From Escherichia phage chee24, in the sequence record NC_047885.1: 64,000 bases of DNA, one strand, 5' to 3'. Position 1 is the first letter of the stretch; every line of letters starts with the position of its first letter. The position numbers and the translations under genes were made by a program. Below the pieces are notes generated by a model. That model was not told where the DNA came from. It did no database searches and saw nothing but the letters and a program-made list of their open reading frames with translations. Shown piece after piece: positions 468 through 13,474 of the stretch.

Positions 468-546
468 TGGTAGATCGCCTGGGACTCGAACCCAGAACCT
501 TCCGATTAAAAGTCGGATGCTACTAAACCTATTGAGCTAGCGACCT
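468..546 (-). tRNA. tRNA-Lys (anticodon UUU), CCA encoded
   Basis: Hand-folded cloverleaf: 7-bp acceptor stem, T-arm CTGGG-TTCGAGT-CCCAG, anticodon stem TCCGA/TCGGA with loop CTTTTAA. Confidence 0.6.
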
Positions 547-547
547 A

Positions 548-715
548 TTAGTAGCCATTATATACTTCTTTAATAGAATAGACTTTTAGGTAAGAATGAT
601 TAATCCCAAACTCCGCCATTACTTCTTTTTCATTTTTTCCATAATGTGCAAGTAAGAATCTTGAGGTATTATTACCTAAACGTTTGTCACTTACTACTAA
701 TCGAAATACTTTCAT
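548..715 (-). CDS. small hypothetical protein (55 aa)
   Basis: Unlisted ORF below the 60-aa track cutoff; ATG at 715 preceded by AGAGGA; fills the gap between two tRNAs. Confidence 0.35.
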   Translation of the reverse strand: MKVFRLVVSDKRLGNNTSRFLLAHYGKNEKEVMAEFGINHSYLKVYSIKEVYNGY

Positions 716-739
716 TTCGAAATCCTCTATTAAAAGGGA

Positions 740-812
740 AGCGGGTGCAGGAATCGAACCTACCTCTTTCTAGCTTATGAGACTAGCGATCTCTACCAGA
801 GATCTAACCCGC
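740..812 (-). tRNA. tRNA-Met or Ile2 (anticodon CAU), no encoded CCA
   Basis: T-arm GTAGG-TTCGATT-CCTGC, anticodon stem CTAGT/GCTAG with loop CTCATAA; acceptor stem has one terminal mismatch. Confidence 0.55.
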
Positions 813-819
813 AATTGTT

Positions 820-895
820 TGGTCAGTGCGGCAGGACTCGAACCTGCGACCCGAAGCATCCAAGGCTCCCACGCTACCAACTGCGCTACGCACTG
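820..895 (-). tRNA. tRNA-Pro (anticodon UGG), CCA encoded
   Basis: Acceptor CAGTGCG/CGCACTG, T-arm GCAGG-TTCGAGT-CCTGC, anticodon loop CTTGGAT. Confidence 0.65.
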
Positions 896-925
896 TTAAT
901 TTTGTTAACTCACTTTATAAGATAT

Positions 926-954
926 ATTATACAGAGAATTAAGTAAAATAGCAA
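926..954 (-). promoter_or_regulatory. sigma70-like early promoter (minus sense TTGCTA-17-TATAAT) driving the tRNA-Pro/Met/Lys cluster
   Basis: Plus-strand ATTATA at 926-931 and TAGCAA at 949-954, 17-bp spacer, A/T-rich upstream element. Confidence 0.6.
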
Positions 955-970
955 ATGAATTTTTAATAAA

Positions 971-1092
971 TTTACTTATTATGTAGGCCGCCTGGAGGCT
1001 ACCAACCCCACGGCTGACAAAGAAGTTTGCGAGACTTCTCTTAAAAGCCAGAATAGACCCGCCGGTCTATCGGAACCTACATAATAAGTAAA
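971..1092. repeat. perfect 17-bp inverted repeat (TTTACTTATTATGTAGG / CCTACATAATAAGTAAA) flanking an 88-bp core
   Basis: Arms at 971-987 and 1076-1092 are exact reverse complements; core contains a further hairpin AGAAGT-TTGCGAG-ACTTCT. Confidence 0.8.
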
Positions 1093-1104
1093 CTTTATAG
1101 TGTC

Positions 1105-1226
1105 ATTCTAGGCAGGACTCGAACCTGCTATCACTTGTGCGGACTTACGAGAACCATTCTTTCACTCGAATCGAACGAGCTTCTGCCCTCGCCAAGCTGG
1201 TTTCCCCCATCAACCACGCTAGAATG
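1105..1226 (-). ncRNA. tRNA-like element, possible pseudo-tRNA or disrupted tRNA
   Basis: Canonical T-arm GCAGG-TTCGAGT-CCTGC at 1111-1128 and 7-bp acceptor-like pairing between 1105-1111 and 1219-1225, but span is too long and no clean anticodon arm was found. Confidence 0.25.
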
Positions 1227-1347
1227 TTAGATTGTTTTCAGTGCAAGAGTCCGAGTCTTGGACACGACCGCTTCGCAAGTACATAGGCAGCTTATCATGA
1301 GTCAGCACTTCCGAATTGCTAGCTCCGTGTTCTGCACTGAAATTTTA

Positions 1348-1695
1348 TTAGTTTAATCGTAAAGTATTATCTACTTCACCATTAATTGTTCGGCATTCCT
1401 CTGGAATTGCCGGGGTGGCCTTGTATTCCCACCATTCAGCACCGTCATATTCCCCACGTTCTAGCCAAGTTCCATCGGCAAACCATACATTACCATAAAG
1501 TAATTGTCCGCCGTATCCAGAATCATATTCAAAGTCTAGGTTATTAAGAAAATCCTCAATATCTTCTTCTGTATAGCCTAAAGGTAATACCCAGACTTTT
1601 TTGTCCCCATAATACCCAAATTCTATTTTAATACACTTAACTTCAGAATTAGTATTTTTTAAGGCAAGTAACAGCTCTTCTTTAGCATTACGCAT
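1348..1695 (-). CDS. hypothetical protein (115 aa)
   Basis: ORF in the minus-strand gene series; protein-like composition. Confidence 0.5.
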   Translation of the reverse strand: MRNAKEELLLALKNTNSEVKCIKIEFGYYGDKKVWVLPLGYTEEDIEDFLNNLDFEYDSGYGGQLLYGNVWFADGTWLERGEYDGAEWWEYKATPAIPEECRTINGEVDNTLRLN

Positions 1696-1720
1696 AATAT
1701 ATTCTCATACTGAATTAATT

Positions 1721-1797
1721 TGGCGCGACCGATGGGATTTGAACCCACATTCTCTCCCGTGACAGGGGAGTACCATTACCAAGCCAGCCCCGGTCGC
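1721..1797 (-). tRNA. tRNA-Asp (anticodon GUC), CCA encoded
   Basis: Acceptor GCGACCG/CGGTCGC, T-arm ATGGG-TTCAAAT-CCCAT, anticodon stem CTCCC/GGGAG with loop CTGTCAC. Confidence 0.65.
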
Positions 1798-1806
1798 ATA
1801 ATTTAT

Positions 1807-1992
1807 TTACTCAGCTTTGAGTTTTTCAATAGCTGCATTAAGTTCTTTAAGAAACTCTTTTCGTACATTAAGACGATTGAGACTTACTAGTATATCATGT
1901 TTAAGTTCTTCGATGTATTTCTTCTCAACTTCAATATTGTTGATAGTACTATCACGATGAACTTCTAGCTGCGCAATCACATTCTTGGACAT
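1807..1992 (-). CDS. small hypothetical protein (61 aa), predicted coiled coil
   Basis: ORF between tRNA genes; heptad-like charged/hydrophobic pattern. Confidence 0.4.
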   Translation of the reverse strand: MSKNVIAQLEVHRDSTINNIEVEKKYIEELKHDILVSLNRLNVRKEFLKELNAAIEKLKAE

Positions 1993-2094
1993 GCTTGTTT
2001 CCTCAGTTATTAATGAAAATGGTATCTGTGGCTGAATTCGATGTCAGCAATGATAGCTGGTTGGCTACCGGTTTACTTAACTCTACACAGAATT

Positions 2095-2172
2095 TGGCGG
2101 TTCCTGCTGGATTCGAACCAGCAACCCTCAACTTAACAAGATGCCGCTCTAACCAATTAGAGCTAAGGAACC
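2095..2172 (-). tRNA. tRNA, probably Asn (anticodon GUU), CCA encoded
   Basis: Acceptor GGTTCCT/AGGAACC, T-arm GCTGG-TTCGAAT-CCAGC, D-arm GCTC..GAGC; anticodon stem weak so anticodon is tentative. Confidence 0.5.
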
Positions 2173-2667
2173 ATATAAGTCAGAACTAGAGTTAATACGT
2201 CCTAGATATTTACTAAGATCCCTAGAATTTATACTAAACCACTCATGTTCTTTTAAATCTTTGAAATACTGGTGAATTAGTTTTTCACCTTTTCGTTTGT
2301 CAAACCAAAAAGACCAATGCTCTAACTTATAATCCCTATAGGGGGAATAAGTCTGATATTGAGCTAATCTCTCTTTTGGATTTTGACTCATACCTATTTT
2401 ATACTGATTTTTCCATGCAGGATTACTAATACAGTATACAAAACCTTCGGAAATAGGAAGTTTATTTTCCTGCTTAAACTTTATAAAGGAAAGTGCAGCA
2501 AGTTTTCTTGAATACATAGTATTCGTATTCTTTTTGGTATTACCATTGGTTCCTGAAAGATTTATATATTCTTCTATAAATCTCTGGATTAGTTCTGCGG
2601 TTATATAGAAGGGCTCATTAGTAACAACGCCTTTCTTTACCAAACTATCAAAAACTTTTGTATGCAC
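2149..2667 (-). CDS. T5orf172-domain protein (GIY-YIG-like nuclease fold, 172 aa)
   Basis: Motif GFVYCISNPAWKNQYKIGMS...YSPYRDYKLEHW typical of the T5orf172 family; 3' end overlaps the tRNA at 2095-2172. Confidence 0.65.
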   Translation of the reverse strand: MHTKVFDSLVKKGVVTNEPFYITAELIQRFIEEYINLSGTNGNTKKNTNTMYSRKLAALSFIKFKQENKLPISEGFVYCISNPAWKNQYKIGMSQNPKERLAQYQTYSPYRDYKLEHWSFWFDKRKGEKLIHQYFKDLKEHEWFSINSRDLSKYLGRINSSSDLYGSLALIG

Positions 2668-2688
2668 TACTTCTTTCCTTTAGTAATT

Positions 2689-2764
2689 TGGACGACCGCA
2701 TGAGATTTGAACTCACATAAAAAGGATTTGCAATCCTTCGCCTAAGCCATTCAGCCAACGGTCG
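2689..2764 (-). tRNA. tRNA-Cys (anticodon GCA), CCA encoded
   Basis: Acceptor CGACCGT/GCGGTCG, anticodon stem AAGGA/TCCTT with loop TTGCAAA, T-arm GTGAG-TTCAAAT-CTCAT. Confidence 0.65.
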
Positions 2765-2942
2765 ATTTATCTTGTTTTTCGAGATCTTCAAATTCTAAAT
2801 CATTGAAGTTCCCTAGAGTACGGGAGTAGAACCCGTCTCCTACGTCATAGCCTGATTTACCACAATCACACATTTTAAACTCTCTATAACGAGTGAAAAT
2901 ATGTTCAGAACCACAACACTTAAATTTAACTAACATTTTCAT
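2751..2942 (-). CDS. small Cys-rich protein (63 aa), possible zinc ribbon
   Basis: ORF with CC..H and CDC motifs. Confidence 0.45.
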   Translation of the reverse strand: MKMLVKFKCCGSEHIFTRYREFKMCDCGKSGYDVGDGFYSRTLGNFNDLEFEDLEKQDKSTVG

Positions 2943-3181
2943 TTAACACGCTCCGGTAAATCTTCGAGTTTATATTGGGTAGCCACATTAGCAGCATCTA
3001 GTAACAAACCCATATGTTTAAGAATCCTGGTGATAGCCTCGCCTTCTGCTTCTTCTACAAAGCAACGTAGATTAACGAAGTCAATACCACCATCCATACC
3101 AGAGAAAATGTTTAGTAAGCGAAACATTACCAGCTTACGTTCTTTCAATTCTTGTTCTGTCATGTTGCTTCTCCAGTTCAA
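2939..3181 (-). CDS. hypothetical protein (80 aa)
   Basis: ORF start overlaps the stop of the upstream ORF (coupled pair). Confidence 0.5.
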   Translation of the reverse strand: MNWRSNMTEQELKERKLVMFRLLNIFSGMDGGIDFVNLRCFVEEAEGEAITRILKHMGLLLDAANVATQYKLEDLPERVK

Positions 3182-3213
3182 TTTATGTAATTATTATATA
3201 GAACTTTTGGAAA

Positions 3214-3501
3214 CTAAGCAACTACATTTTTTAGGAATTTGATCCCTTTCTTTTTCTTCTTATATTTCCACGTTAATGGATTCTGTCGATTATGAACGCT
3301 TGAGATCTTTGTCTCGTCAAAGTTCTTCAATATCATGTAATCACAGGATAATTGTTCTAGTGGAATGTGATCACCGTCAAAAGCGTATACATAAGGCTGT
3401 TGACTAGCACGATAATGATAGACTTTGTTAATTCTACGTTTCAGCGACTTATCCGCGCAGTAAATAAAGAAGTTTTCAGGATGCATCAGCATCTCCTTCA
3501 A
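3214..3501 (-). CDS. hypothetical protein (95 aa)
   Basis: ORF in the minus-strand series. Confidence 0.5.
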   Translation of the reverse strand: MKEMLMHPENFFIYCADKSLKRRINKVYHYRASQQPYVYAFDGDHIPLEQLSCDYMILKNFDETKISSVHNRQNPLTWKYKKKKKGIKFLKNVVA

Positions 3502-3503
3502 TT

Positions 3504-3578
3504 TGGTGCACCCTGTTCGTATCGAACGAACCTCTCAAGCTCTTCAGGCAAGCGCTAATCCATCTCAGCTAAAGGTGC
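3504..3578 (-). tRNA. tRNA, probably Phe (anticodon GAA), CCA encoded
   Basis: Acceptor GCACCTT/AGGGTGC, D-arm GCTG..TAGC, perfect T-arm GTTCG-TTCGATA-CGAAC; anticodon stem has two U-U mismatches. Confidence 0.5.
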
Positions 3579-3584
3579 AAATTT

Positions 3585-3665
3585 TGGCAAACCCACTAGG
3601 ACTCGAACCTAGACCGTACGGTTTTGGAGACCGACATGCTGTCCAGTAACACTCTAGGAATGCAG
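3585..3665 (-). ncRNA. tRNA-like element with Trp-like anticodon loop (CTCCAAA) but no acceptor-stem pairing
   Basis: T-arm CTAGG-TTCGAGT-CCTAG and 3' CCA present; no complementary 5' strand found within tRNA distance. Confidence 0.3.
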
Positions 3666-3669
3666 AAAT

Positions 3670-3763
3670 TGGTACACCCACGGAGAATTGAACTCCGATT
3701 CTCAGATTGAACTCCGATTCTCAGATTGAAATCCTGATGTCCTAGCCATTAGACGATAGGTGT
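3670..3763 (-). tRNA. tRNA-Glu-like gene (anticodon UUC) with a 19-bp tandem duplication at the variable-loop position
   Basis: Removing one repeat copy gives a 75-nt cloverleaf (acceptor ACACCTA/TGGGTGT, D-arm GTCT-AATGGCTA-GGAC, anticodon stem TCAGG/TCTGA, T-arm CGGAG-TTCAATT-CTCCG); as encoded it is 94 nt. Confidence 0.45.
3687..3730. repeat. perfect 19-bp tandem duplication (ATTGAACTCCGATTCTCAG x2) plus a 6-bp partial third copy
   Basis: Exact copies at 3687-3705 and 3706-3724. Confidence 0.85.
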
Positions 3764-3771
3764 ATTAAATT

Positions 3772-3859
3772 TGGTGGGCGTTAATGGAGTCGAACCACTC
3801 GAGTCGCAATGACCAGGGATTTACAATCCCCTCCGCTACCACTTACGGAATAAACGCCC
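3772..3859 (-). tRNA. tRNA-Tyr (anticodon GUA), long variable arm, CCA encoded
   Basis: Acceptor GGGCGTT/AACGCCC, anticodon stem GGGGA/TCCCT with loop TTGTAAA, 88-nt length with extra arm. Confidence 0.6.
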
Positions 3860-3987
3860 ATATTTAGAAGCATTCAAATACTTGTTTAAACACTTTTAAA
3901 TATGTTTCCGAATTAGATAACTATTATACCAAGTTTTAAGGCACTGAGCAAGTCAAATTTTAAAGAACTTGCTCAGTGCTGTATTAG

Positions 3988-4263
3988 TTAGTCGAACTTA
4001 GGAGTGATAGTTAAGGAGAACGGAAGTTCGAAAACTTCTTCGCCCTCATTACTAACGGTAACTACACGACCTTTAAGTTCAGACATTAAAATATCAATAT
4101 CAGCTTTTGCATCTGGAGCCATGCCAGCTTCAATACATTTAGCTTTAACTTCCGGTAAAAGCTCTACGTTATAGAGATAGAGCCACTCAATCTCACCTTC
4201 CCAGTCTTCCCAGGATTTGCAGATTGCACTTTCAATACCAGTTGCTACAACACGATTTTGCAT
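3988..4263 (-). CDS. hypothetical protein (91 aa)
   Basis: ORF with promoter-like TTGCCT-18-TATAAT (minus sense) at about 4290-4345 upstream. Confidence 0.55.
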   Translation of the reverse strand: MQNRVVATGIESAICKSWEDWEGEIEWLYLYNVELLPEVKAKCIEAGMAPDAKADIDILMSELKGRVVTVSNEGEEVFELPFSLTITPKFD

Positions 4264-4353
4264 TAATTAACTCCTTCATCAATTTATATAACTATTATAC
4301 CAGAAATTTAAAGTAAAAGGCAAGTACATTTTTAAAAATTCTGTTTGGAGGAG

Positions 4354-4560
4354 CTAAACTCCAGATTTTTCGGCCAAGTCTAGACTAATAAGAGTTATAG
4401 CCATAATTGCTGCACCGTGTTCTTTTTCTCCGGTGTTTTTAGCAGAGTCTATAATATCCTTAATCTGTTCGTAATAACTTTTTACTTCTTGTTCAATGCC
4501 TGCCTCGGCTATCATGCCTTTAGCCATGAATCGTTGCATGGTAATTTCAGGATTAGCCAT
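4354..4560 (-). CDS. hypothetical protein (68 aa)
   Basis: ORF; start overlaps the stop of the 4553-4720 ORF. Confidence 0.5.
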   Translation of the reverse strand: MANPEITMQRFMAKGMIAEAGIEQEVKSYYEQIKDIIDSAKNTGEKEHGAAIMAITLISLDLAEKSGV

Positions 4561-4720
4561 GTTGTTTCTCCAGTTTCATTTTTAATAGTTTACAGATGAA
4601 ATCAACGTCTTCATCTGTGCCTAAGTCTCTATCCTCAAGGGTCGCCTTGAAGTTTTTCGTCAATTCCATGAGGATGACTTCCCTAGAACGACGTGTTGGC
4701 GGAGGTGGATGTCTATACAT
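4553..4720 (-). CDS. small hypothetical protein (55 aa)
   Basis: Unlisted ORF below the track cutoff, coupled to the downstream gene. Confidence 0.35.
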   Translation of the reverse strand: MYRHPPPPTRRSREVILMELTKNFKATLEDRDLGTDEDVDFICKLLKMKLEKQHG

Positions 4721-4735
4721 CTTATTTCCTTAATT

Positions 4736-4812
4736 TGGTAGGGGTGGTGGGATTCGAACCCACAAAACCTGAATTTTAAGTCCAGTACCTATGCCAATTC
4801 GATTACACCCCC
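4736..4812 (-). tRNA. tRNA with anticodon UAA (Leu-like, but short variable loop)
   Basis: Acceptor GGGGGTG/CACCCCT, T-arm GTGGG-TTCGAAT-CCCAC, anticodon stem CTGGA/TTCAG with loop CTTAAAA. Confidence 0.5.
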
Positions 4813-5107
4813 ATGTAATCAGTTTATTAGTTGATACATATTATAGCCTAAAGAAAACCCTACTACTAATCCTACGAACCAACCAATATAATAATCTTTT
4901 AATTTCACGGGTGTCAACCTCGTTCAATATCTAGAGAAATACCACAGGTAGGATTAATGCCTGTGCCTTTGCACGTCGGACAAACCCAGATATTACAGAA
5001 TGTATCCCCTGCTTCTGCATCAGAACTTTTCCAACTCCTAGACAGTTAGGACAGGCACATTCTTCTAGCTCTTGCTTGAGTTCTTGAAACTTAGACATAT
5101 AGTTTCC

Positions 5108-5296
5108 TTATTCAATTACTTTTGAGGCTTCAAGGGAGTCGATATAGTGTACGTTTTCTACCATGATCATATAATCTGCCACTTTATCCATAGCCTGAGC
5201 TTCAGAGGTAGCCCTGGCTAACCTATATCCTTTTTTATATTCATCCGGGTATTCCCTATCTGGAATAAACACAACACAAACTAGGTATAGTTCCAC
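5108..5296 (-). CDS. hypothetical protein (62 aa)
   Basis: ORF in the minus-strand series. Confidence 0.4.
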   Translation of the reverse strand: MELYLVCVVFIPDREYPDEYKKGYRLARATSEAQAMDKVADYMIMVENVHYIDSLEASKVIE

Positions 5297-5317
5297 TTGT
5301 AACCTCTCTAATCAAGA

Positions 5318-5395
5318 TGGTGGCTCCCCGAGGATTCGAACCTACGTACCTTCCGGTTATGAGCCGGATGCTCATACCATATGAGCTTGAGAACC
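5318..5395 (-). tRNA. tRNA-Met or Ile2 (anticodon CAU), CCA encoded
   Basis: Acceptor GGTTCTC/GGGAGCC, anticodon stem TCCGG/CCGGA with loop CTCATAA; T-stem imperfect. Confidence 0.55.
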
Positions 5396-5401
5396 AGAAT
5401 T

Positions 5402-5490
5402 TGGCGGAAGAAGTGGGAATCGAACCCACAAGGCTATATTTCAAACCGACAGATTAGCAATCTGCTGCAATACCGTTATGCTATTCTTCC
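5402..5490 (-). tRNA. tRNA-Ser (anticodon GCU), long variable arm, CCA encoded
   Basis: Acceptor GGAAGAA/TTCTTCC, anticodon stem GCAGA/TCTGT with loop TTGCTAA, T-arm GTGGG-TTCGATT-CCCAC, 89 nt. Confidence 0.6.
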
Positions 5491-6087: not shown

Positions 6088-6165
6088 TTGAATTTTTTAA
6101 CTTTTTAGAGGAAAATCACAGGATGCTTACGGGTAGCAGGTAAGTGGTCAGGACCGAAATTTGTG

Positions 6166-6195
6166 ACCCCACTAAAAATCTGGGGTCAATTTTTA
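6166..6195 (+). terminator. rho-independent terminator-like hairpin at the 5' edge of the plus-strand cassette
   Basis: Stem GACCCCA/TGGGGTC with 9-nt loop, followed by AATTTTTA. Confidence 0.5.
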
Positions 6196-6203
6196 AAGAC
6201 CCC

Positions 6204-6232
6204 TTGACATTTTTGCCGGGGTAGTGTAAAGT
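6204..6232 (+). promoter_or_regulatory. sigma70-like promoter (TTGACA-17-TAAAGT) for the plus-strand cassette
   Basis: Consensus -35 at 6204-6209, 17-bp spacer, -10 TAAAGT 6227-6232, AGGAGG RBS at 6280. Confidence 0.6.
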
Positions 6233-6295
6233 ATATGTTATGGATGAGTGATCAAAGAGACACACATTTTCTATATACTAGGAGGTGTCAAAAAA

Positions 6296-7275
6296 TGACA
6301 GAAGAAGTAGCTAAGAGTCCTGAAACCGTCGCTAGCGTAGCAGCAGAACTGCATCGTCACGAGGAATCAGATAAGAAAAAGTGGGAGAAAGTCAAAGCCT
6401 ACGAAGAAGAACATCGTGAACACGATGATAAAGATGAAGAAGATGACGATGATGAACATTGTCATAAATATGGAAAACATAAAATGCAAGAACCAGTAAA
6501 CGTATTTACTAATGGCTTCCCTGGCATGGGTGCATTCCCAGCTAACGCAAGTGCTTTCGGTGGAGAAGGTATGGGTCTATTCGGAGCTATCCTAATCGGT
6601 GCTCTATTAACAGGCGGATTTGGTGGTTTTGGTGGTTTTGGCCGTGGTGCTGGCGTTGCCGCTGAAGGGACTGCTGTGGACGCGATCCTTTCTAACCAAG
6701 ATACTGCAAGTATTCTAGCTGCAATCAATACTACTCGTACAGAAGCTAACCAGGGCACTGGGGCTGTTCTAAGCGCAGTAAACGGTGTGGGAGCTGCTCA
6801 AGCTGCTAGCACTCAGCAAGTTCTGACTACTATCTACGGTACAGGTGCTAATCTGTCAAACCAGATCTGTGCTGAAACTCGTAACGTTATTCAGGGTCAG
6901 TTCGATCTTTCTCGTCAGATGGATCAATCTTTCGCTGCTAACCAGATCGCACGTGCTCAAGATAAGTTTGACTCTGCTCAGATTGCTTTCCAGCAGTCTA
7001 TTCAGACCAATAACCAGTTTGCCGCTGTTCAGGCTCAGATGTGTGCTAACCAGAATGCTATAGAGCGTCAGCTTGCTGAATGTTGCTGTGAACTTCAGAC
7101 TGCGATCGCTGGTGTAACTACTGCGCGTATCCAGGACGAACTGAATGAATGCCGTCTGCGTGAAGCAATCGCTCAAGGTAGTGGTGCTAACGGTCAGGTA
7201 ATTAACCAAATCGCTGTAAGTCTTGGTGCTATCACTCAGACTCTGGCTGGTCTGCAGGCTAAACTGCCGGCTTAA
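6296..7275 (+). CDS. hypothetical protein (326 aa): acidic N-terminus, Gly-rich hydrophobic segment, Gln/Ala-rich C-terminal half
   Basis: Track ORF 6235-7275 trimmed to the ATG at 6296 behind AGGAGG; segment GMGLFGAILIGALLTGGFGGFGGFG looks like a glycine-zipper membrane helix; codons look more GC-rich than neighbours. Confidence 0.6.
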
Positions 7276-7296
7276 AATTAAGGGGAGGAGCCCATT

Positions 7297-7713
7297 ATGA
7301 GTAAATATGGTTTTGTAAACAACGGATTTAATCAACAAATGGGCTCCCAGCAGCCCGTTCCGGGTCTGGATAATCCTTACCTACAACAGTTGCAACAGCG
7401 TTTAGCAGAAGCGCAACAGATGCAGCAACAACTCCAGCAAAACCCTGGAAGTGTGAGTCCTATGCAAATGATGCAGCAAATGAGCGGGCAGTCGCAAATG
7501 CCTCAACAAATGCAGCAACAGGTGCCTCAGCAGCAAGTTCAGCAACAAACCCAACAACCGCAGGTTTCTGCGGAAGGACAGGCAGTACTAGCTCTTTTCG
7601 AAGATTTCGCAAAGACAGAGGATGGGAAACAGCTTGTATCACTTATGGGTAAGTTTAATAGCTTCTGCCAAAGCCAGGTTGCAAAAGCTCAAAATGGTGA
7701 TAATAACTCCTAA
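7297..7713 (+). CDS. Gln-rich low-complexity protein (138 aa)
   Basis: ATG behind GGGGAGGAG RBS; long QQ(M/L)QQ tracts. Confidence 0.55.
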   Translation: MSKYGFVNNGFNQQMGSQQPVPGLDNPYLQQLQQRLAEAQQMQQQLQQNPGSVSPMQMMQQMSGQSQMPQQMQQQVPQQQVQQQTQQPQVSAEGQAVLALFEDFAKTEDGKQLVSLMGKFNSFCQSQVAKAQNGDNNS

Positions 7714-7722
7714 GGAGGAATT

Positions 7723-7917
7723 ATGTGTTGCAGAAAATCTGTTTCGTGCTGCCCAATGCCTGTAGCACGTTGTTGCTCTCCAGCAATGTTTACACAAATA
7801 CCGGCGTTCAATCCCTTTGCCTTTAAGCCTACTCTTATCCTGCCCCCTAGAGTAGATTTTCAGTCAAGATTGGCCTCCCGTATGGGTGGTTGCTGTAACA
7901 AGAGTATATGGTTCTAA
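7723..7917 (+). CDS. small Cys-rich protein (64 aa) with four Cys-Cys doublets
   Basis: ATG behind AAGGAGG RBS; sequence MCCRKSVSCC..RCCS..GGCCNK. Confidence 0.5.
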   Translation: MCCRKSVSCCPMPVARCCSPAMFTQIPAFNPFAFKPTLILPPRVDFQSRLASRMGGCCNKSIWF

Positions 7918-7933
7918 AGAACCAATAATAAAA

Positions 7934-7966
7934 AGCCCCTAGTCGAAAGACTTAGGGGCTTTTCTC
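7934..7966 (+). terminator. rho-independent terminator ending the plus-strand cassette
   Basis: Stem AGCCCCTAGTC / GACTTAGGGGCT with GAAA loop, followed by TTTTCTC. Confidence 0.7.
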
Positions 7967-7975
7967 TTATCTTAA

Positions 7976-8014
7976 ATACAGAAAAGCCCTGCGCTCTCCA
8001 GGGAACGCAGGGCT
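7976..8014 (-). terminator. rho-independent terminator downstream of the SPFH gene
   Basis: Stem AGCCCTGCG/CGCAGGGCT; minus-sense T-tract from plus AGAAAA. Confidence 0.6.
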
Positions 8015-8038
8015 TACTTCGAATATTACGTGTGGGTA

Positions 8039-8986
8039 TTACTTGTTACGCATATCCATAATCATCTGGCCATCATAACCAGTGCCAACCACAGTCTGCG
8101 GTACACCACCTTGATACTTCTGAGCACGAATCATTTCAACTTCTAGTTGCTTCCAGCGAATCATCTCAGGAGTAATGGTACGTTGCAGAGCAGCGTTAGC
8201 TTCAGCTTCTTTCTTAGCTGCATACAGTTTAGCATCTGCATCACGTTCGTTTGCAATAGCTTGGTTGTTACGAGCTTCACGATCTGCTTCTGCTTGTTTA
8301 ACCTTCTGCTGTGCTTCTTGTTCAACGCGAGCTAATTCAGCTTTCGCAGCATTAACTTGTTCTTCGCGAACTTTGGTATTCTGTACCTGTTCCATAATTA
8401 CCGGTGGCAATGTAATATCCTGAAGGAACACTTGCTTAACTGTGTAACCATAGGGGCGTGCATACTCTTCAACTTCCTGTTGAATTGCAGTTTGCAATTG
8501 TGCTTGAATTTTAGCATCAAACAAATCTTGTGCTTTAGGTACAGACTTACCAAACTCACGAATAGTAGACAGTAATTTTTCAGTTACATACTTATCTAGA
8601 GCCTGATCTTGAGTACCCGCATTAATACGGTTGATCGGTGCCTTAGAACCATCAAACTGCAACATAACAGTCAGGTCAACAGTGGATTTAAACTTATCCT
8701 GGCTAGGAACCTGAAGTTTATCTAATTTTACAGCAATATCTTTTGTACTAAAAGTATCGAAAGATGCAAATGGGTTTACAAGATGGAAACCAGGTAATAC
8801 TGGGTTAGGATCTACTTTACCTAGAAATGTTTGGGTTTTAACCGTACCATCAGAAACAATAGTATATGAATTAAAAGCTAGGATTAAACCTGCTAAACCA
8901 ACTACAGCACCAATACTCCAACGTTTAATAGTGCGAATTACTTTTTGCTCAGAAGTCAGTTCTTTCATATTTTTAGTATTAGACAT
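8039..8986 (-). CDS. SPFH/band-7 (prohibitin/HflC-like) membrane protein (315 aa)
   Basis: N-terminal membrane anchor (WSIGAVVGLAGLILAF), SPFH-like core, long Ala/Glu/Gln-rich coiled-coil C-terminus. Confidence 0.65.
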   Translation of the reverse strand: MSNTKNMKELTSEQKVIRTIKRWSIGAVVGLAGLILAFNSYTIVSDGTVKTQTFLGKVDPNPVLPGFHLVNPFASFDTFSTKDIAVKLDKLQVPSQDKFKSTVDLTVMLQFDGSKAPINRINAGTQDQALDKYVTEKLLSTIREFGKSVPKAQDLFDAKIQAQLQTAIQQEVEEYARPYGYTVKQVFLQDITLPPVIMEQVQNTKVREEQVNAAKAELARVEQEAQQKVKQAEADREARNNQAIANERDADAKLYAAKKEAEANAALQRTITPEMIRWKQLEVEMIRAQKYQGGVPQTVVGTGYDGQMIMDMRNK

Positions 8987-9020
8987 ATATTTCCTTTGTT
9001 TTAGTTACAGTTAATAAAAT

Positions 9021-9095
9021 TGGCCGAGGTGACAGGATTCGAACCTGCATAAAGGAATTTAGAAGACTCCTGCCTCTCCCTTAGACTACACCCCG
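9021..9095 (-). tRNA. tRNA-Arg (anticodon UCU), CCA encoded
   Basis: Acceptor CGGGGTG/CACCTCG, anticodon stem GGAGT/ATTCC with loop CTTCTAA, T-arm GCAGG-TTCGAAT-CCTGT. Confidence 0.6.
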
Positions 9096-9597
9096 TTTAA
9101 GTATTTTTAAGAACTCTCGTAAAAACTCTTAAAAATACAGACGATACCGGGAGAGTCATAAGTCTCACTCATTAAGTATTTCAAGACAAAATACAGTAAC
9201 GTCTATTATTTTCCAGTTTAAGTCAAGGTGACTTAGTGGTTATGTCCTGCGGTATACTGAGGACTAGGTTAGGTTAGGGTCATGACTCCCCACCTTTTTG
9301 CTGCTACTCAACAGGAGTTATCGCGAATTACCTGTGCTATTGTGCACCATTAGTGGCATCTCTCATGCCAGCATTTCCCACTTTGTGGATAGTTTGAAAA
9401 ACTACTCCGATATGGAGAAAGAACTTCACTATCCTAGAATACCTTCTAAAGTTCTTCTTTAGCCTGGACATAGTTAAATCGTAATAAAACTATTCAGCAG
9501 ACTGGTTGGTTAGTCTGGAACCAACTACCGCGTGGTTTAGGCAGTGCGCAACTAACCTCGGAAGCTTTTACATTAAAAGCACCAGTTATCCAGTTCT

Positions 9598-9670
9598 TAC
9601 CGACCGTAGGATTCGAACCTACATCTTCCACCAGTTACGGCTTGATAATACCGTTTTATACTAGATCGGC
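9598..9670 (-). ncRNA. tRNA-like element (canonical acceptor stem and T-arm, irregular core)
   Basis: Acceptor GCCGATC/GGTCGGT and T-arm GTAGG-TTCGAAT-CCTAC; no standard anticodon arm identified. Confidence 0.3.
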
Positions 9671-9893
9671 AGTGTTACTACATAAGTGATTTCCACACCC
9701 CACTATCAGTAAATTAGAGAAGAGTTTAGGGGAGAGGTTTCAGACGCCCCATTTTACACGTTCTAGCCACTAACCGGGATTGCCGCCCCCTGTGTACTAG
9801 TTTTCCAACTAACCCACCGACTCTATTCAATGCGCTCCGGTTGGGATTCTGCACTCAGCGTAATCGGCTCGCTGTTCTCTAATTTATGAATAT

Positions 9894-9922
9894 ATTATAC
9901 AGAATTTATAAGCATTTAGCAA
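9894..9922 (-). promoter_or_regulatory. sigma70-like early promoter (minus sense TTGCTA-17-TATAAT)
   Basis: Plus-strand ATTATA 9894-9899 and TAGCAA 9917-9922; points into the 9100-9700 region, tRNA-Arg and the SPFH gene. Confidence 0.55.
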
Positions 9923-9930
9923 ATAAATTT

Positions 9931-10374
9931 TTAATTAAATTCGCCAGCAATCTGAGCAGCAGTACCACCATCATAACGCCCAGGAAATTCTTCCTTAATC
10001 GCTTTCATCAGCATACCTTTTGTAATTCCAGGGTTTAGCTTAACTAATTCTGCAAAGTATTTACGAATCTCAGTATCAGATAACTGAGGAGGCAGATACT
10101 CCTGCAACCACTTATTTAGAATGTATTCATACTGAGTGGACTGCAAGCTATAACTATCAAGATCTTGACCATGAAGTTTAGCTTTCATCTGGTTAATGCT
10201 TTTTAGTTGAGCTTTGAGATAAGACACAAATTGTTCAGAAGTGATGAAATCTTTATCAATACGCTGAAGATCCCCGATTATGGTCTGATAGCTTTTAGCG
10301 ACTTCTTTATCAGAACCATTAAACTTAGAATCCTGCAAAGCTCTACGCAAAACATCTAAAATATTCTCTTCCAT
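9931..10374 (-). CDS. GatB/YqeY-domain protein (147 aa)
   Basis: C-terminal YLPPQLSDTEI...GRYDGGTAAQIA resembles the YqeY family signature. Confidence 0.55.
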   Translation of the reverse strand: MEENILDVLRRALQDSKFNGSDKEVAKSYQTIIGDLQRIDKDFITSEQFVSYLKAQLKSINQMKAKLHGQDLDSYSLQSTQYEYILNKWLQEYLPPQLSDTEIRKYFAELVKLNPGITKGMLMKAIKEEFPGRYDGGTAAQIAGEFN

Positions 10375-10544
10375 TATTTCATTCCTAACGCTTGGTTAAA
10401 AGATTGTTCTGTCATAACTGCTGAGACTTTGGCGAAATCAAACTTTTTAGGGTTCGTAGTGATCTCAGCAACGTTGGAAGTTTTAACAGTTTTCGTAGTA
10501 CGAATACCGCGAGTATTAACACCAATAATTACAACTGATTTCAT
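10374..10544 (-). CDS. small hypothetical protein (56 aa)
   Basis: Unlisted ORF; stop overlaps the next ATG as TAATG. Confidence 0.3.
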   Translation of the reverse strand: MKSVVIIGVNTRGIRTTKTVKTSNVAEITTNPKKFDFAKVSAVMTEQSFNQALGMK

Positions 10545-10612: not shown

Positions 10613-11080
10613 TTAAGTTTTAGTGACAACAGGCTTATAAAATGTATGTCCCTTAATCTTAGTTGTTTTCTTAAACTTCTTTGTCCAGTATGGTTTATCT
10701 TTACCACTATGGAAGTATAAAGCTCCATGTGTAGGATCTTGTGGTAAATCAACGTAGTATATCACTCTAGCTAAATTCTTGGCGGTTTGCCAAGCCTCAT
10801 CAGTTTTATCAACTTTTGGTCTCTTAGATACCCAAGAGAACTGGTTAGACTGATATACTACTTTACAGTAGGAATCTGGGAATTTACCGGAGTTTACACG
10901 GTTTTTAGTAACATGTGCAATCGCCGTCATTCCCTTTATGCCCTCACCACGACTTTCGAAATAGATATTTTTAGCAATGCAATCTATTTCTTTTGCATCG
11001 TGCGATGCCTGACTACTAAAGCTGAAGGTAAGGGCAGCTACTAAAAGCAAAGCTGCCTTCATTCTTTTTACTCCTGCCAA
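10613..11080 (-). CDS. secreted cell-wall hydrolase, SleB/Hydrolase_2-like (155 aa)
   Basis: Signal-peptide-like MKAALLLVAALTFSFSSQA, then IYFESRGEGIKGMTAIAHVTKNRV motif. Confidence 0.6.
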   Translation of the reverse strand: MAGVKRMKAALLLVAALTFSFSSQASHDAKEIDCIAKNIYFESRGEGIKGMTAIAHVTKNRVNSGKFPDSYCKVVYQSNQFSWVSKRPKVDKTDEAWQTAKNLARVIYYVDLPQDPTHGALYFHSGKDKPYWTKKFKKTTKIKGHTFYKPVVTKT

Positions 11081-11385
11081 TCATATTCAACACGATTGGG
11101 ATTTTCTTTATACCCTAAGTCAAGCAAATCATTACGCATAGTTTGCTTAGCTACGGGATTCGAGGTTACTAGTACCACTTTCTTTGGTCTCTGCCCAAAT
11201 TCTAAGAGTAAACGAAGAATTTGATAACCTTCCATACCATCTACAGCCAAGTCATTATCCATATAAACAAAGTGGCCTGTGGTATCAGTTTTATTCAGAA
11301 ACTCGACAGCGGCTTCTGGGGTTCGAATGATAATGTCCATTCCATGAAGATTACGCACATCATCAATCAAAATATGAAAAGTCAT
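11068..11385 (-). CDS. hypothetical protein (105 aa), possibly receiver-like fold
   Basis: ORF; weak resemblance to phage cyclic-phosphate-processing receiver domains (HILIDDVR...). Confidence 0.45.
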   Translation of the reverse strand: MTFHILIDDVRNLHGMDIIIRTPEAAVEFLNKTDTTGHFVYMDNDLAVDGMEGYQILRLLLEFGQRPKKVVLVTSNPVAKQTMRNDLLDLGYKENPNRVEYDWQE

Positions 11386-12772: not shown

Positions 12773-13474
12773 TCAAATTTTCATTTTTTCGATCATAGCT
12801 GCAACACAATAGCTTTCAACTAAGGCATCAAATGCAGGATCATGCTTAACCGGATATATCCCATAACGAATGGTGTCCATCTTCTCCATTTTAGCTATTG
12901 CCCAGCTAACACCTTCGGTCTCTAGAGCCTTATAACTGTATCCAGCTTGCATCCAGAGATTACGAAGAGATCGAACATTACCCAAATTCCAGAATTTCCA
13001 CGGAACTACCTCTTCATTGGTTCCAGCATGGAACGTGTTTGCAGAGTAGATAGTCATATCAAACTCTGGGCCATTGCCATAATACAAAGCATTTTCGCCT
13101 AGAGCCAACTCCATAATATTTTGGGCCATAGAGAAGGCAGCATAGTTTGAGCCTAATTTATTAGTGCAATGATGTTTACCATTTTGGAAGGCAATCAGTT
13201 TTGGATTACGTTCCTTCATAGCTTCCATAATATGTAGAGCTGATGGGCTATTCTTAGCTTGATCCATCCAGAATGCTAGAGTAGATGCCGTAACTTTAGC
13301 TCCAGAATTAAGCTGATCCTGCACATCCAAAGTAACAAATACTAAGTCAGGGTCTTTATCAATCCCATGCATAGCCACAAAAGCGAAAGAAGGCATTGCG
13401 ATATGAGTAGTACCACAATCTCCTGGAGTTCCTAGAGATTCAATATCTAGCATACCAAATGGTTTTACTTTCAT
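12773..13474 (-). CDS. DEDDh-type 3'-5' exonuclease-like protein (233 aa)
   Basis: N-terminal MLDIESLG (DxE) and C-terminal HDPAFDA (H-x4-D) motifs. Confidence 0.55.
   Translation of the reverse strand: MKVKPFGMLDIESLGTPGDCGTTHIAMPSFAFVAMHGIDKDPDLVFVTLDVQDQLNSGAKVTASTLAFWMDQAKNSPSALHIMEAMKERNPKLIAFQNGKHHCTNKLGSNYAAFSMAQNIMELALGENALYYGNGPEFDMTIYSANTFHAGTNEEVVPWKFWNLGNVRSLRNLWMQAGYSYKALETEGVSWAIAKMEKMDTIRYGIYPVKHDPAFDALVESYCVAAMIEKMKI

Follow-up and report, generated by a model that had tools for sequence, protein, structure and literature searches.

What would a T5-like phage do with a membrane protein of the SPFH/band-7 family? The question arises from Escherichia phage chee24 (NC_047885.1), of which we analysed a stretch of 64,000 nucleotides (nt), hereafter the window. 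On its minus strand, an open reading frame (ORF) running from ATG to TAA at 8039-8986 encodes a protein of 315 amino acids (aa), which a first-pass annotation had taken for a phage-encoded SPFH protein. This identification is borne out by Pfam Band_7, PHROG_200 and AlphaFold/Foldseek and, judged by its sequence, the gene is the ortholog of T5.080, which is already known as an annotation and is not new. We consider it, with moderate confidence, to be a non-essential accessory gene, probably expressed early, whose product is a single-pass inner-membrane SPFH protein that would assemble into a periplasmic, homomeric cage and tune its clients.

The Pfam Band_7 profile (PF01145), against which the first-pass annotation had proposed to check the protein, matches residues 52-225 with 64.2 bits (E = 2e-17; cut-off 23.6 bits), and PHROG_200 matches from end to end (E = 5.5e-86). 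The nearest solved structures by sequence (phmmer against PDB) are QmcA (1.8e-6) and prohibitin-2 (9e-5), a ranking that is repeated when the family profile is used (QmcA at 2.2e-7). The AlphaFold model, for which 25 family members were used, has a mean predicted local distance difference test (pLDDT) of 78.5 and comprises in order a helix at residues 12-38, a beta-rich alpha/beta domain at 41-192 (pLDDT 80-90), a helix of 76 residues at 195-270, a further helix at 273-290 and a C-tail of low confidence. Foldseek aligned this model to erlin1/2, prohibitin, HflK/C, stomatin and QmcA in PDB over ~260-320 columns, which is nearly the whole chain (E 4e-15 to 1e-10), and to flotillin and vault more weakly; taken together, these matches span E 4e-15 to 1e-8, with a probability of 1.0. 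Isolated SPFH cores (3bk6, 4fvj) superpose at a root-mean-square deviation (rmsd) of 2.3-4.1 Å; the high rmsd found elsewhere is explained by the angle of the long helix, which is free in a monomer model. That the protein might instead be a generic coiled-coil membrane protein is suggested by residues 206-275, 69% of which are A/E/Q/K/R, and by a weak match to DUF4407 (E = 0.068). This reading is refuted by a Band_7 score well above threshold, by the modelled alpha/beta domain and by the superposed SPFH cores, and we give it practically no credence. Since the SPFH profile is matched and no non-SPFH coiled-coil protein matches better, the two points on which the assignment had been staked beforehand, we treat the ORF as encoding an SPFH protein, the only one that hmmsearch found among all ORFs of the window.

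As modelled, the chain combines the SPFH fold with a membrane helix before it and a long helix, a second helix and a conserved C-tail after it (Table 1). Kyte-Doolittle windows of 19 residues peak at 1.8 over residues 24-44, the sole hydrophobic stretch, and an N-terminal stretch of this kind is present in all 25 aligned family members. In some relatives the long helix is extended by exactly 11 or 22 residues, in tandem 11-mers resembling AKLYAAKKEAE that map to alignment columns 267-300 (residues ~245-262 of the window protein). Insertions and deletions in units of 11 residues would be expected if the helical register had to be held in a packed wall of helices. The C-tail is conserved across the family yet disordered in the monomer model.

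T5.080 (YP_006908.1) likewise has 315 aa, is 98.7% identical to the window protein and differs from it in nothing of substance. Window 7000-10500 is a 100% match to five 'Bacteriophage T5-like' isolates, pork27 among them, and many T5-like phages of Escherichia and Salmonella are 96-99% identical to it. The RefSeq entry of T5 describes T5.080 as 'lipoprotein; similar to Aeh1ORF064c and 44RRORF098c; contains single transmembrane domain', and in several GenBank records its orthologs are named 'SPFH domain-containing protein', 'PHB domain-containing protein', 'prohibitin family protein' or 'HflC'. Pfam SPFH hits have been tabulated for the T4-like homologues RB43ORF139c, 44RRORF098c, Aeh1ORF064c and GAP161_127 (Nolan et al. 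2006; PMC1524935), and a paper on jumbo phages from 2020 describes the function of phage SPFH proteins as poorly understood (PMC7760394). Our literature search returned mentions at the level of annotation, and no functional study of T5.080 or of any viral SPFH member; SPFH folds are predicted in many further phages and in giant viruses.

By tblastn, relatives of the window protein were found in 724 phage records, the gene occupying one place per record among the phage records listed, and a search of 5.8 billion proteins added further lineages (90-kb phages and a 152-kb contig). Identity to the window protein is 80-100% in T5-like phages (437 records with at least 80%), 74-79% in T4-like phages of Klebsiella, Enterobacter and Cronobacter, ~60% in T4-like phages of Aeromonas, 72-75% in 90-kb Salmonella and Proteus phages (SE131, J3S), 75% in an unclassified 152-kb contig and 32-35% in large Vibrio and Aeromonas phages (~200-220 kb). 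As a T5-like marker gene (window 12773-13474) is found at the same threshold of at least 80% in 436 records, the SPFH gene is almost universal in T5-like phages. Between the T5-like, T4-like, 90-kb and 152-kb lineages the proteins are 72-78% identical, with synonymous divergence at saturation (pS 0.70-0.81), low non-synonymous divergence (pN 0.16-0.20) and a dN/dS of ~0.07-0.17 where dS is estimable, a combination that points to old transfers and to strong constraint on the protein. In a crude neighbour-joining tree, the copies of enterobacterial phages group irrespective of phage family. The T4-like version of the gene also occurs in records filed as bacterial or plasmid, namely 'Flagellimonas marina' (NZ_JBHSCL010000010; 178,077 bp), a 'K. 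pneumoniae plasmid' (174 kb) and 'Enterobacter asburiae' (177 kb), all of which are probably phage DNA wrongly labelled, as their lengths are those usual for T4-like phages.

The gene is nevertheless accessory: it is dispensable in the laboratory, yet kept almost everywhere in T5-like phages. The viable T5-like phage NG_S8 (Epseptimavirus; LC788711, 3250-3900) carries an in-frame internal deletion that removes the counterpart of window 8161-8934 and leaves a 55-aa remnant with neither membrane helix nor SPFH domain. Since NG_S8 is viable with the gene gutted in this way, the protein is not needed for plaque formation. Compared with window 6141-8934, the same phage is also without the whole plus-strand cassette that converges on the gene, and a 66-aa ORF upstream of the remnant has no counterpart in the compared stretch.

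Outside phages, neither 5,426 complete E. coli genomes nor the plasmids of PLSDB held a homologue. When one genome per bacterial species was scanned, 61 loci with a homologue emerged, including chromosomal copies in Morganella and Providencia (57-59% identical to the window protein) and others in Gammaproteobacteria that are methylotrophic or marine (31-41%). These homologues share length, signal anchor and NSYT motif with the window protein; they differ from it in being stand-alone genes in housekeeping, non-prophage contexts that vary by genus. The Morganellaceae copies, which share 88% identity among themselves while their synonymous sites are saturated, nest inside the phage clade of the crude tree. 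This nesting suggests an old exchange between phages and Morganellaceae, in either direction.

To ask what such a protein may do is to ask on which side of the membrane its SPFH domain lies. In HflK/C, prohibitin and erlin this domain is located away from the cytosol, whereas in QmcA and stomatin it faces the cytoplasm. For the window protein, the periplasm of the host inner membrane is the most likely location, an orientation that we regard overall as moderately supported. The N-tail (residues 1-23) has six K/R and two D/E, and the 15 residues after the helix have two K/R; among 25 relatives, net charge averages +2.7 ahead of the membrane helix and +0.5 over the 15 residues that follow it. 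Under the positive-inside rule, this bias would keep the N-terminus in the cytoplasm. As independent support, 12 distant relatives, Morganella phage vB_Mm5 included, possess a lipobox (LLGSC, LLGAC, IGGC) exactly at the junction of helix and SPFH domain, and because lipoproteins are exported, the SPFH domain of these relatives lies outside the cytoplasm. The window protein itself is named a lipoprotein by RefSeq and PHROG_200, a label that suits some of those distant relatives. It cannot apply here, as both the window protein and T5.080 have zero cysteines and lipidation at a lipobox is impossible; the sequence thus rules the label out, and its probability is negligible.

The same lack of cysteines means that no disulfide hints at the periplasm, a point in favour of the opposite orientation, in which this protein would hold its SPFH domain in the cytoplasm, as QmcA and stomatin do, and scaffold membrane processes on that side. 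QmcA is, moreover, the best PDB match by sequence, with the single protein as well as with the profile. We nonetheless think this orientation unlikely: positive charge is found mostly in the N-tail across the family, relatives whose helix/SPFH junction carries a lipobox have to export the domain, the neighbourhood shows no NfeD partner of the kind that YbbJ is to QmcA, and the top structural matches are erlin, prohibitin and HflK/C, which face lumen, intermembrane space and periplasm.

With the periplasm-facing orientation as the preferred one, we propose that the K/R-rich N-tail would stay cytoplasmic, that the hydrophobic helix would serve as an uncleaved signal anchor, and that the SPFH domain and the helices behind it would be placed, like those of HflK/C, on the periplasmic side of the inner membrane of the host. 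All SPFH proteins with a solved structure, HflK/C, QmcA, prohibitin, erlin, stomatin and flotillin included, form rings or cages. By analogy, many copies of the phage protein may join through their long helices and C-tails into a closed ring or cage around a patch of membrane, an assembly that would be homomeric because there is only one SPFH gene. The cage would enclose or scaffold at least one inner-membrane protein, tuning its activity or turnover during infection, and for its client the best precedent is an FtsH-type membrane protease or the substrates of such a protease. Cage and client, and with them the function as a periplasm-facing membrane scaffold, are what we infer from these relatives. 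HflK/HflC forms a periplasm-facing SPFH cage around the FtsH protease of E. coli, and since this is the best bacterial precedent for a cage of that orientation, control of membrane proteolysis is our leading specific guess, although a tentative one that we would not expect to be right. The benefit to the phage would be felt in nature and would not be required for plaques. As for expression, transcription would start from the early promoter at ~9900, run through the tRNA-like element and tRNA-Arg and stop at the 7984-8015 hairpin. The first-pass annotation had supposed that the protein could remodel the host membrane or protect phage membrane proteins; this fits the family, but it draws on analogy, no partner gene is found nearby and the isolate with the gutted gene is viable.

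Comparison with characterised systems shows how far the likeness extends. HflK and HflC, our working model for the action of the phage protein, resemble it in having an N-terminal anchor followed by the SPFH domain, a long helix and a C-terminal segment, all three of which are predicted to be non-cytoplasmic in the phage protein (Foldseek E 1e-12 to 1e-9), but they are a pair of paralogs where the phage has one gene, and they give no sequence match at E<=1; the N-tail of HflK is long, that of the phage protein short. Prohibitin 1/2 and erlin 1/2 are the best structural matches (E 4e-15 to 1e-12), and prohibitin is also found by sequence; these are, however, hetero-oligomeric proteins of eukaryotic organelles and only 15-20% identical. 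E. coli QmcA-YbbJ, an SPFH-NfeD pair, has the same domain order, but there is no NfeD gene near the phage gene and QmcA faces the cytoplasm, opposite to the orientation predicted for the phage protein. The T4-like SPFH proteins (RB43ORF139c, 44RRORF098c, Aeh1ORF064c, GAP161_127) belong to the same family, with 60-79% identity over the whole length; they differ in lying in the tk-rI region of myoviruses and not in a tRNA cluster, and N-tail and membrane helix are unconserved.

Several observations weigh against the proposed cage. The orientation is backed indirectly, through the positive-inside rule and the lipobox relatives, and the hints of a cage, namely the 11-residue units of the long helix and the conserved C-tail, are likewise indirect. 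From lineage to lineage, membrane helix and N-tail show little conservation. The monomer model has a predicted template modelling score (pTM) of only 0.47, which is due to the undetermined angle of its helices. No NfeD, no protease such as FtsH and no recurrent partner is found beside the gene in the T5-like, T4-like, 90-kb and 152-kb phages, and none of NfeD, FtsH or a recurrent partner stands beside the chromosomal homologues either (61 loci, of which the 60 with a called SPFH ORF were clustered). HflK and HflC are missing from the phmmer hits in PDB at E<=1, and NCBIfam models, among which HflK/HflC models would be included, give no match to the window protein at the same limit, so the link to FtsH is one of architecture. 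A function of the FtsH-associated type is further disfavoured by the single subunit and by the unconserved membrane segment.

Other roles can be imagined for a ring in the inner membrane. Rather than regulating a protease, it might act as a barrier that excludes the DNA of superinfecting phages or blunts membrane-acting defence effectors. This would suit a gene that at least four phage lineages, with Enterobacterales hosts where the host is known, have taken up and retained, as is typical of genes for host interface and competition; a gene, too, that can be spared in the laboratory while being nearly fixed among T5-like isolates, and that has no homologue in the E. coli genomes searched. Yet no PADLOC defence family matches at E<=0.01, its context offers no link to receptor-blocking or anti-defence genes, and we know of no exclusion or anti-defence protein with an SPFH fold, which leaves the barrier improbable. 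A role in the timing of lysis, for example by confining holin/antiholin, or a secreted hydrolase of the cell wall, within the periplasm-facing membrane, appears more doubtful still. The gene does follow directly after rI (antiholin) and rI.-1 in two T4-like phages, GAP161 and KM3, and a gene for a SleB-like Hydrolase_2 protein lies three genes upstream in T5-like phages and two downstream in the 152-kb contig. The adjacency to rI is, however, synteny inherited within one lineage, the two genes are ~3 kb apart in an Aeromonas T4-like phage, and the 90-kb phage SE131 has neither rI nor Hydrolase_2 as a neighbour; by gene numbering, the holin and endolysin genes of T5 are presumably elsewhere.

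There is also a more far-reaching version of the periplasmic homomeric cage, which we regard as possible but would not bet on: several virulent lineages (T5-like, T4-like, a 90-kb phage and the 152-kb contig) may each have captured such a cage, and conserved it strictly, as a host-takeover enclosure for an inner-membrane machine. The captured machine might be FtsH or a periplasm-exposed complex such as a proton-channel motor, and its capture might stabilise phage membrane proteins or disarm exclusion or defence at the level of the membrane.

The surroundings of the gene, with features as listed in Table 1, suggest that it belongs to an early transcript. In the first-pass annotation the gene was embedded in a tRNA cluster, and it does indeed lie at the edge of one: tRNA-Arg precedes it closely, and 13 further tRNAs are found at 468-5490, beyond the plus-strand cassette (6235-7917). 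An Rfam scan of 7900-10000 returned nothing beyond the two tRNA-type matches, and the region around the upstream tRNA-like element is annotated in T5 as the stable 'RNAX'. At least five near-identical early promoter modules of the T5 type (A-rich element, TTGCT, 17 nt, TATAAT) are present on the minus strand of the window, with aligned copies at 9922-9894, ~10600, ~6083, ~11440 and 5534-5506. The SPFH gene is the last cistron of the unit that starts at the 9922-9894 promoter. As the promoter scan found no other promoter-like minus-strand site between this promoter and the gene, the SPFH mRNA is probably part of a tRNA-containing transcript, and tRNA-Arg and the SPFH gene are probably co-transcribed. 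Expression early in infection, as had been claimed, is made plausible by the type of this promoter.

Table 1. Features of the SPFH gene, its product and its flanks in the window
Feature	Position	Strand	Basis
SPFH/band-7 coding sequence, 315 aa + TAA stop	8039..8986	-	ORF list; Band_7; T5.080 ortholog (YP_006908.1)
Shine-Dalgarno AAGGA, 5 nt before ATG	8992..8996	-	sequence read directly
K/R-rich N-terminal tail, residues 1-23, predicted cytoplasmic	8918..8986	-	charge count
Hydrophobic helix, residues 24-44, putative uncleaved signal anchor with the conserved motif NSYT(I/V)V at its end	8855..8917	-	Kyte-Doolittle
SPFH alpha/beta domain, residues 45-194, with invariant VPSQDKFK motif	8405..8854	-	Pfam, model, alignment
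Long A/E/Q/K/R-rich helix, residues 195-270, predicted equivalent of the SPFH-cage CC1 wall helix	8177..8404	-	model
Residues 271-315: second helix (273-290) and conserved C-tail GGVPQTVVGxxYxGxMIMDMR	8042..8176	-	model, conservation
Bidirectional terminator hairpin A, common with convergent plus-strand cassette	7931..7963	.	folds -21.3 and -22.0 kcal/mol; U-tracts on both strands
Terminator-like hairpin B for SPFH transcript: 13-bp stem, then UUUUCUGUAU	7984..8015	-	terminator scan; -25 kcal/mol, z = -4.9
tRNA-Arg(UCU), 34 nt upstream of gene	9021..9095	-	ARAGORN; Rfam tRNA 49.3 bits; T5 tRNAR at homologous spot
tRNA-like element, ARAGORN tRNA-Ser with odd anticodon ACT	9597..9671	-	Rfam tRNA 34.5 bits
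Nearest upstream promoter TTGCTA-N17-TATAAT with A-rich upstream element, T5 early type (P16-17)	9894..9922	-	scan 10/12; T5 annotation

The local map of terminators has to be redrawn. The gene had been described as bracketed by two convergent terminators, but both hairpins lie 3' of it, in the 121-nt gap that separates it from the plus-strand cassette, and it is therefore not bracketed; its 5' flank is unstructured (-0.3 kcal/mol). The site of hairpin A is annotated in T5 as an 'efficient bidirectional rho-independent terminator', and the position homologous to hairpin B as a 'major DNA single-chain interruption'. In line with the latter, hairpin B holds GCGC at 7991-7994, where the minus strand (GA/GCGCA) matches the consensus of the T5 single-strand nick. 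T5.080 and its orthologs in T5-like phages (Markadamsvirinae) have the same arrangement, with tRNA-Arg and RNAX upstream and the terminator, the nick site and the convergent T5.077-079 cassette downstream.

Among the window neighbours scanned with Pfam, YqeY, DUF7616, Hydrolase_2, cREC_REC and Toprim were recognised, and four more ORFs, three of which make up the cassette, gave no hit. In a region whose genes otherwise lie on the minus strand, this plus-strand cassette encodes a T5.077-like protein (phrog_8119) with an acidic/His-rich N-part, a Gly-rich hydrophobic segment and a Q/A-rich C-part, which has a partial match in Pseudomonas phage KPP23, as well as a Q-rich protein of 138 aa and a Cys-rich peptide of 64 aa. 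On the minus strand, at window 10613-11080 and 11068-11385, the gene for the SleB-like cell-wall hydrolase (Pfam Hydrolase_2), whose N-terminus resembles a signal peptide by eye, adjoins a gene for a small cREC_REC ('cyclic-phosphate processing receiver') protein. That the SPFH gene and the T5.077-079 cassette form a unit was considered and rejected, because T5.077 homologues are found in 221 records as against ~437 and are absent from the other SPFH-bearing lineages.

The neighbours change from lineage to lineage. In T5-like phages they are tRNA-Arg, YqeY-like, DUF7616, putatively secreted Hydrolase_2 and cREC_REC genes; in the T4-like phages GAP161 and KM3 they are tk, rI, rI.-1 and a NadR-like gene; in the 90-kb phage SE131 an AAA ATPase, ProQ and NAD-salvage genes; and in the 152-kb contig TerD, TelA and Hydrolase_2. 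On chromosomes, the gene of Morganella and Providencia sits among metabolic and regulatory genes that are different in each genus, and gammaproteobacterial contexts include a position after accD-folC or one beside an NDH-2-like oxidoreductase and an ABC-F protein. An 'ABC transporter' recurs near cellular homologues (21 of the 60 loci). This neighbour proved heterogeneous: in Morganella it is a C39 bacteriocin exporter, in Methylococcaceae an ABC-F protein. Its recurrence was therefore rejected as chance. The SPFH gene travels alone.

In practical terms, this analysis corrects an annotation, from lipoprotein to a protein that is likely periplasm-facing, together with the local terminator map. 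T5 offers a tractable system in which to take the question further, as the gene is single-copy, near-universal, constrained and laboratory-dispensable, with a natural null in NG_S8. Were the host-takeover cage to prove true, it would be the first function assigned to a virus-encoded SPFH protein, and a study in T5 could reveal the advantage to a virus of having an SPFH assembly on its host's membrane.

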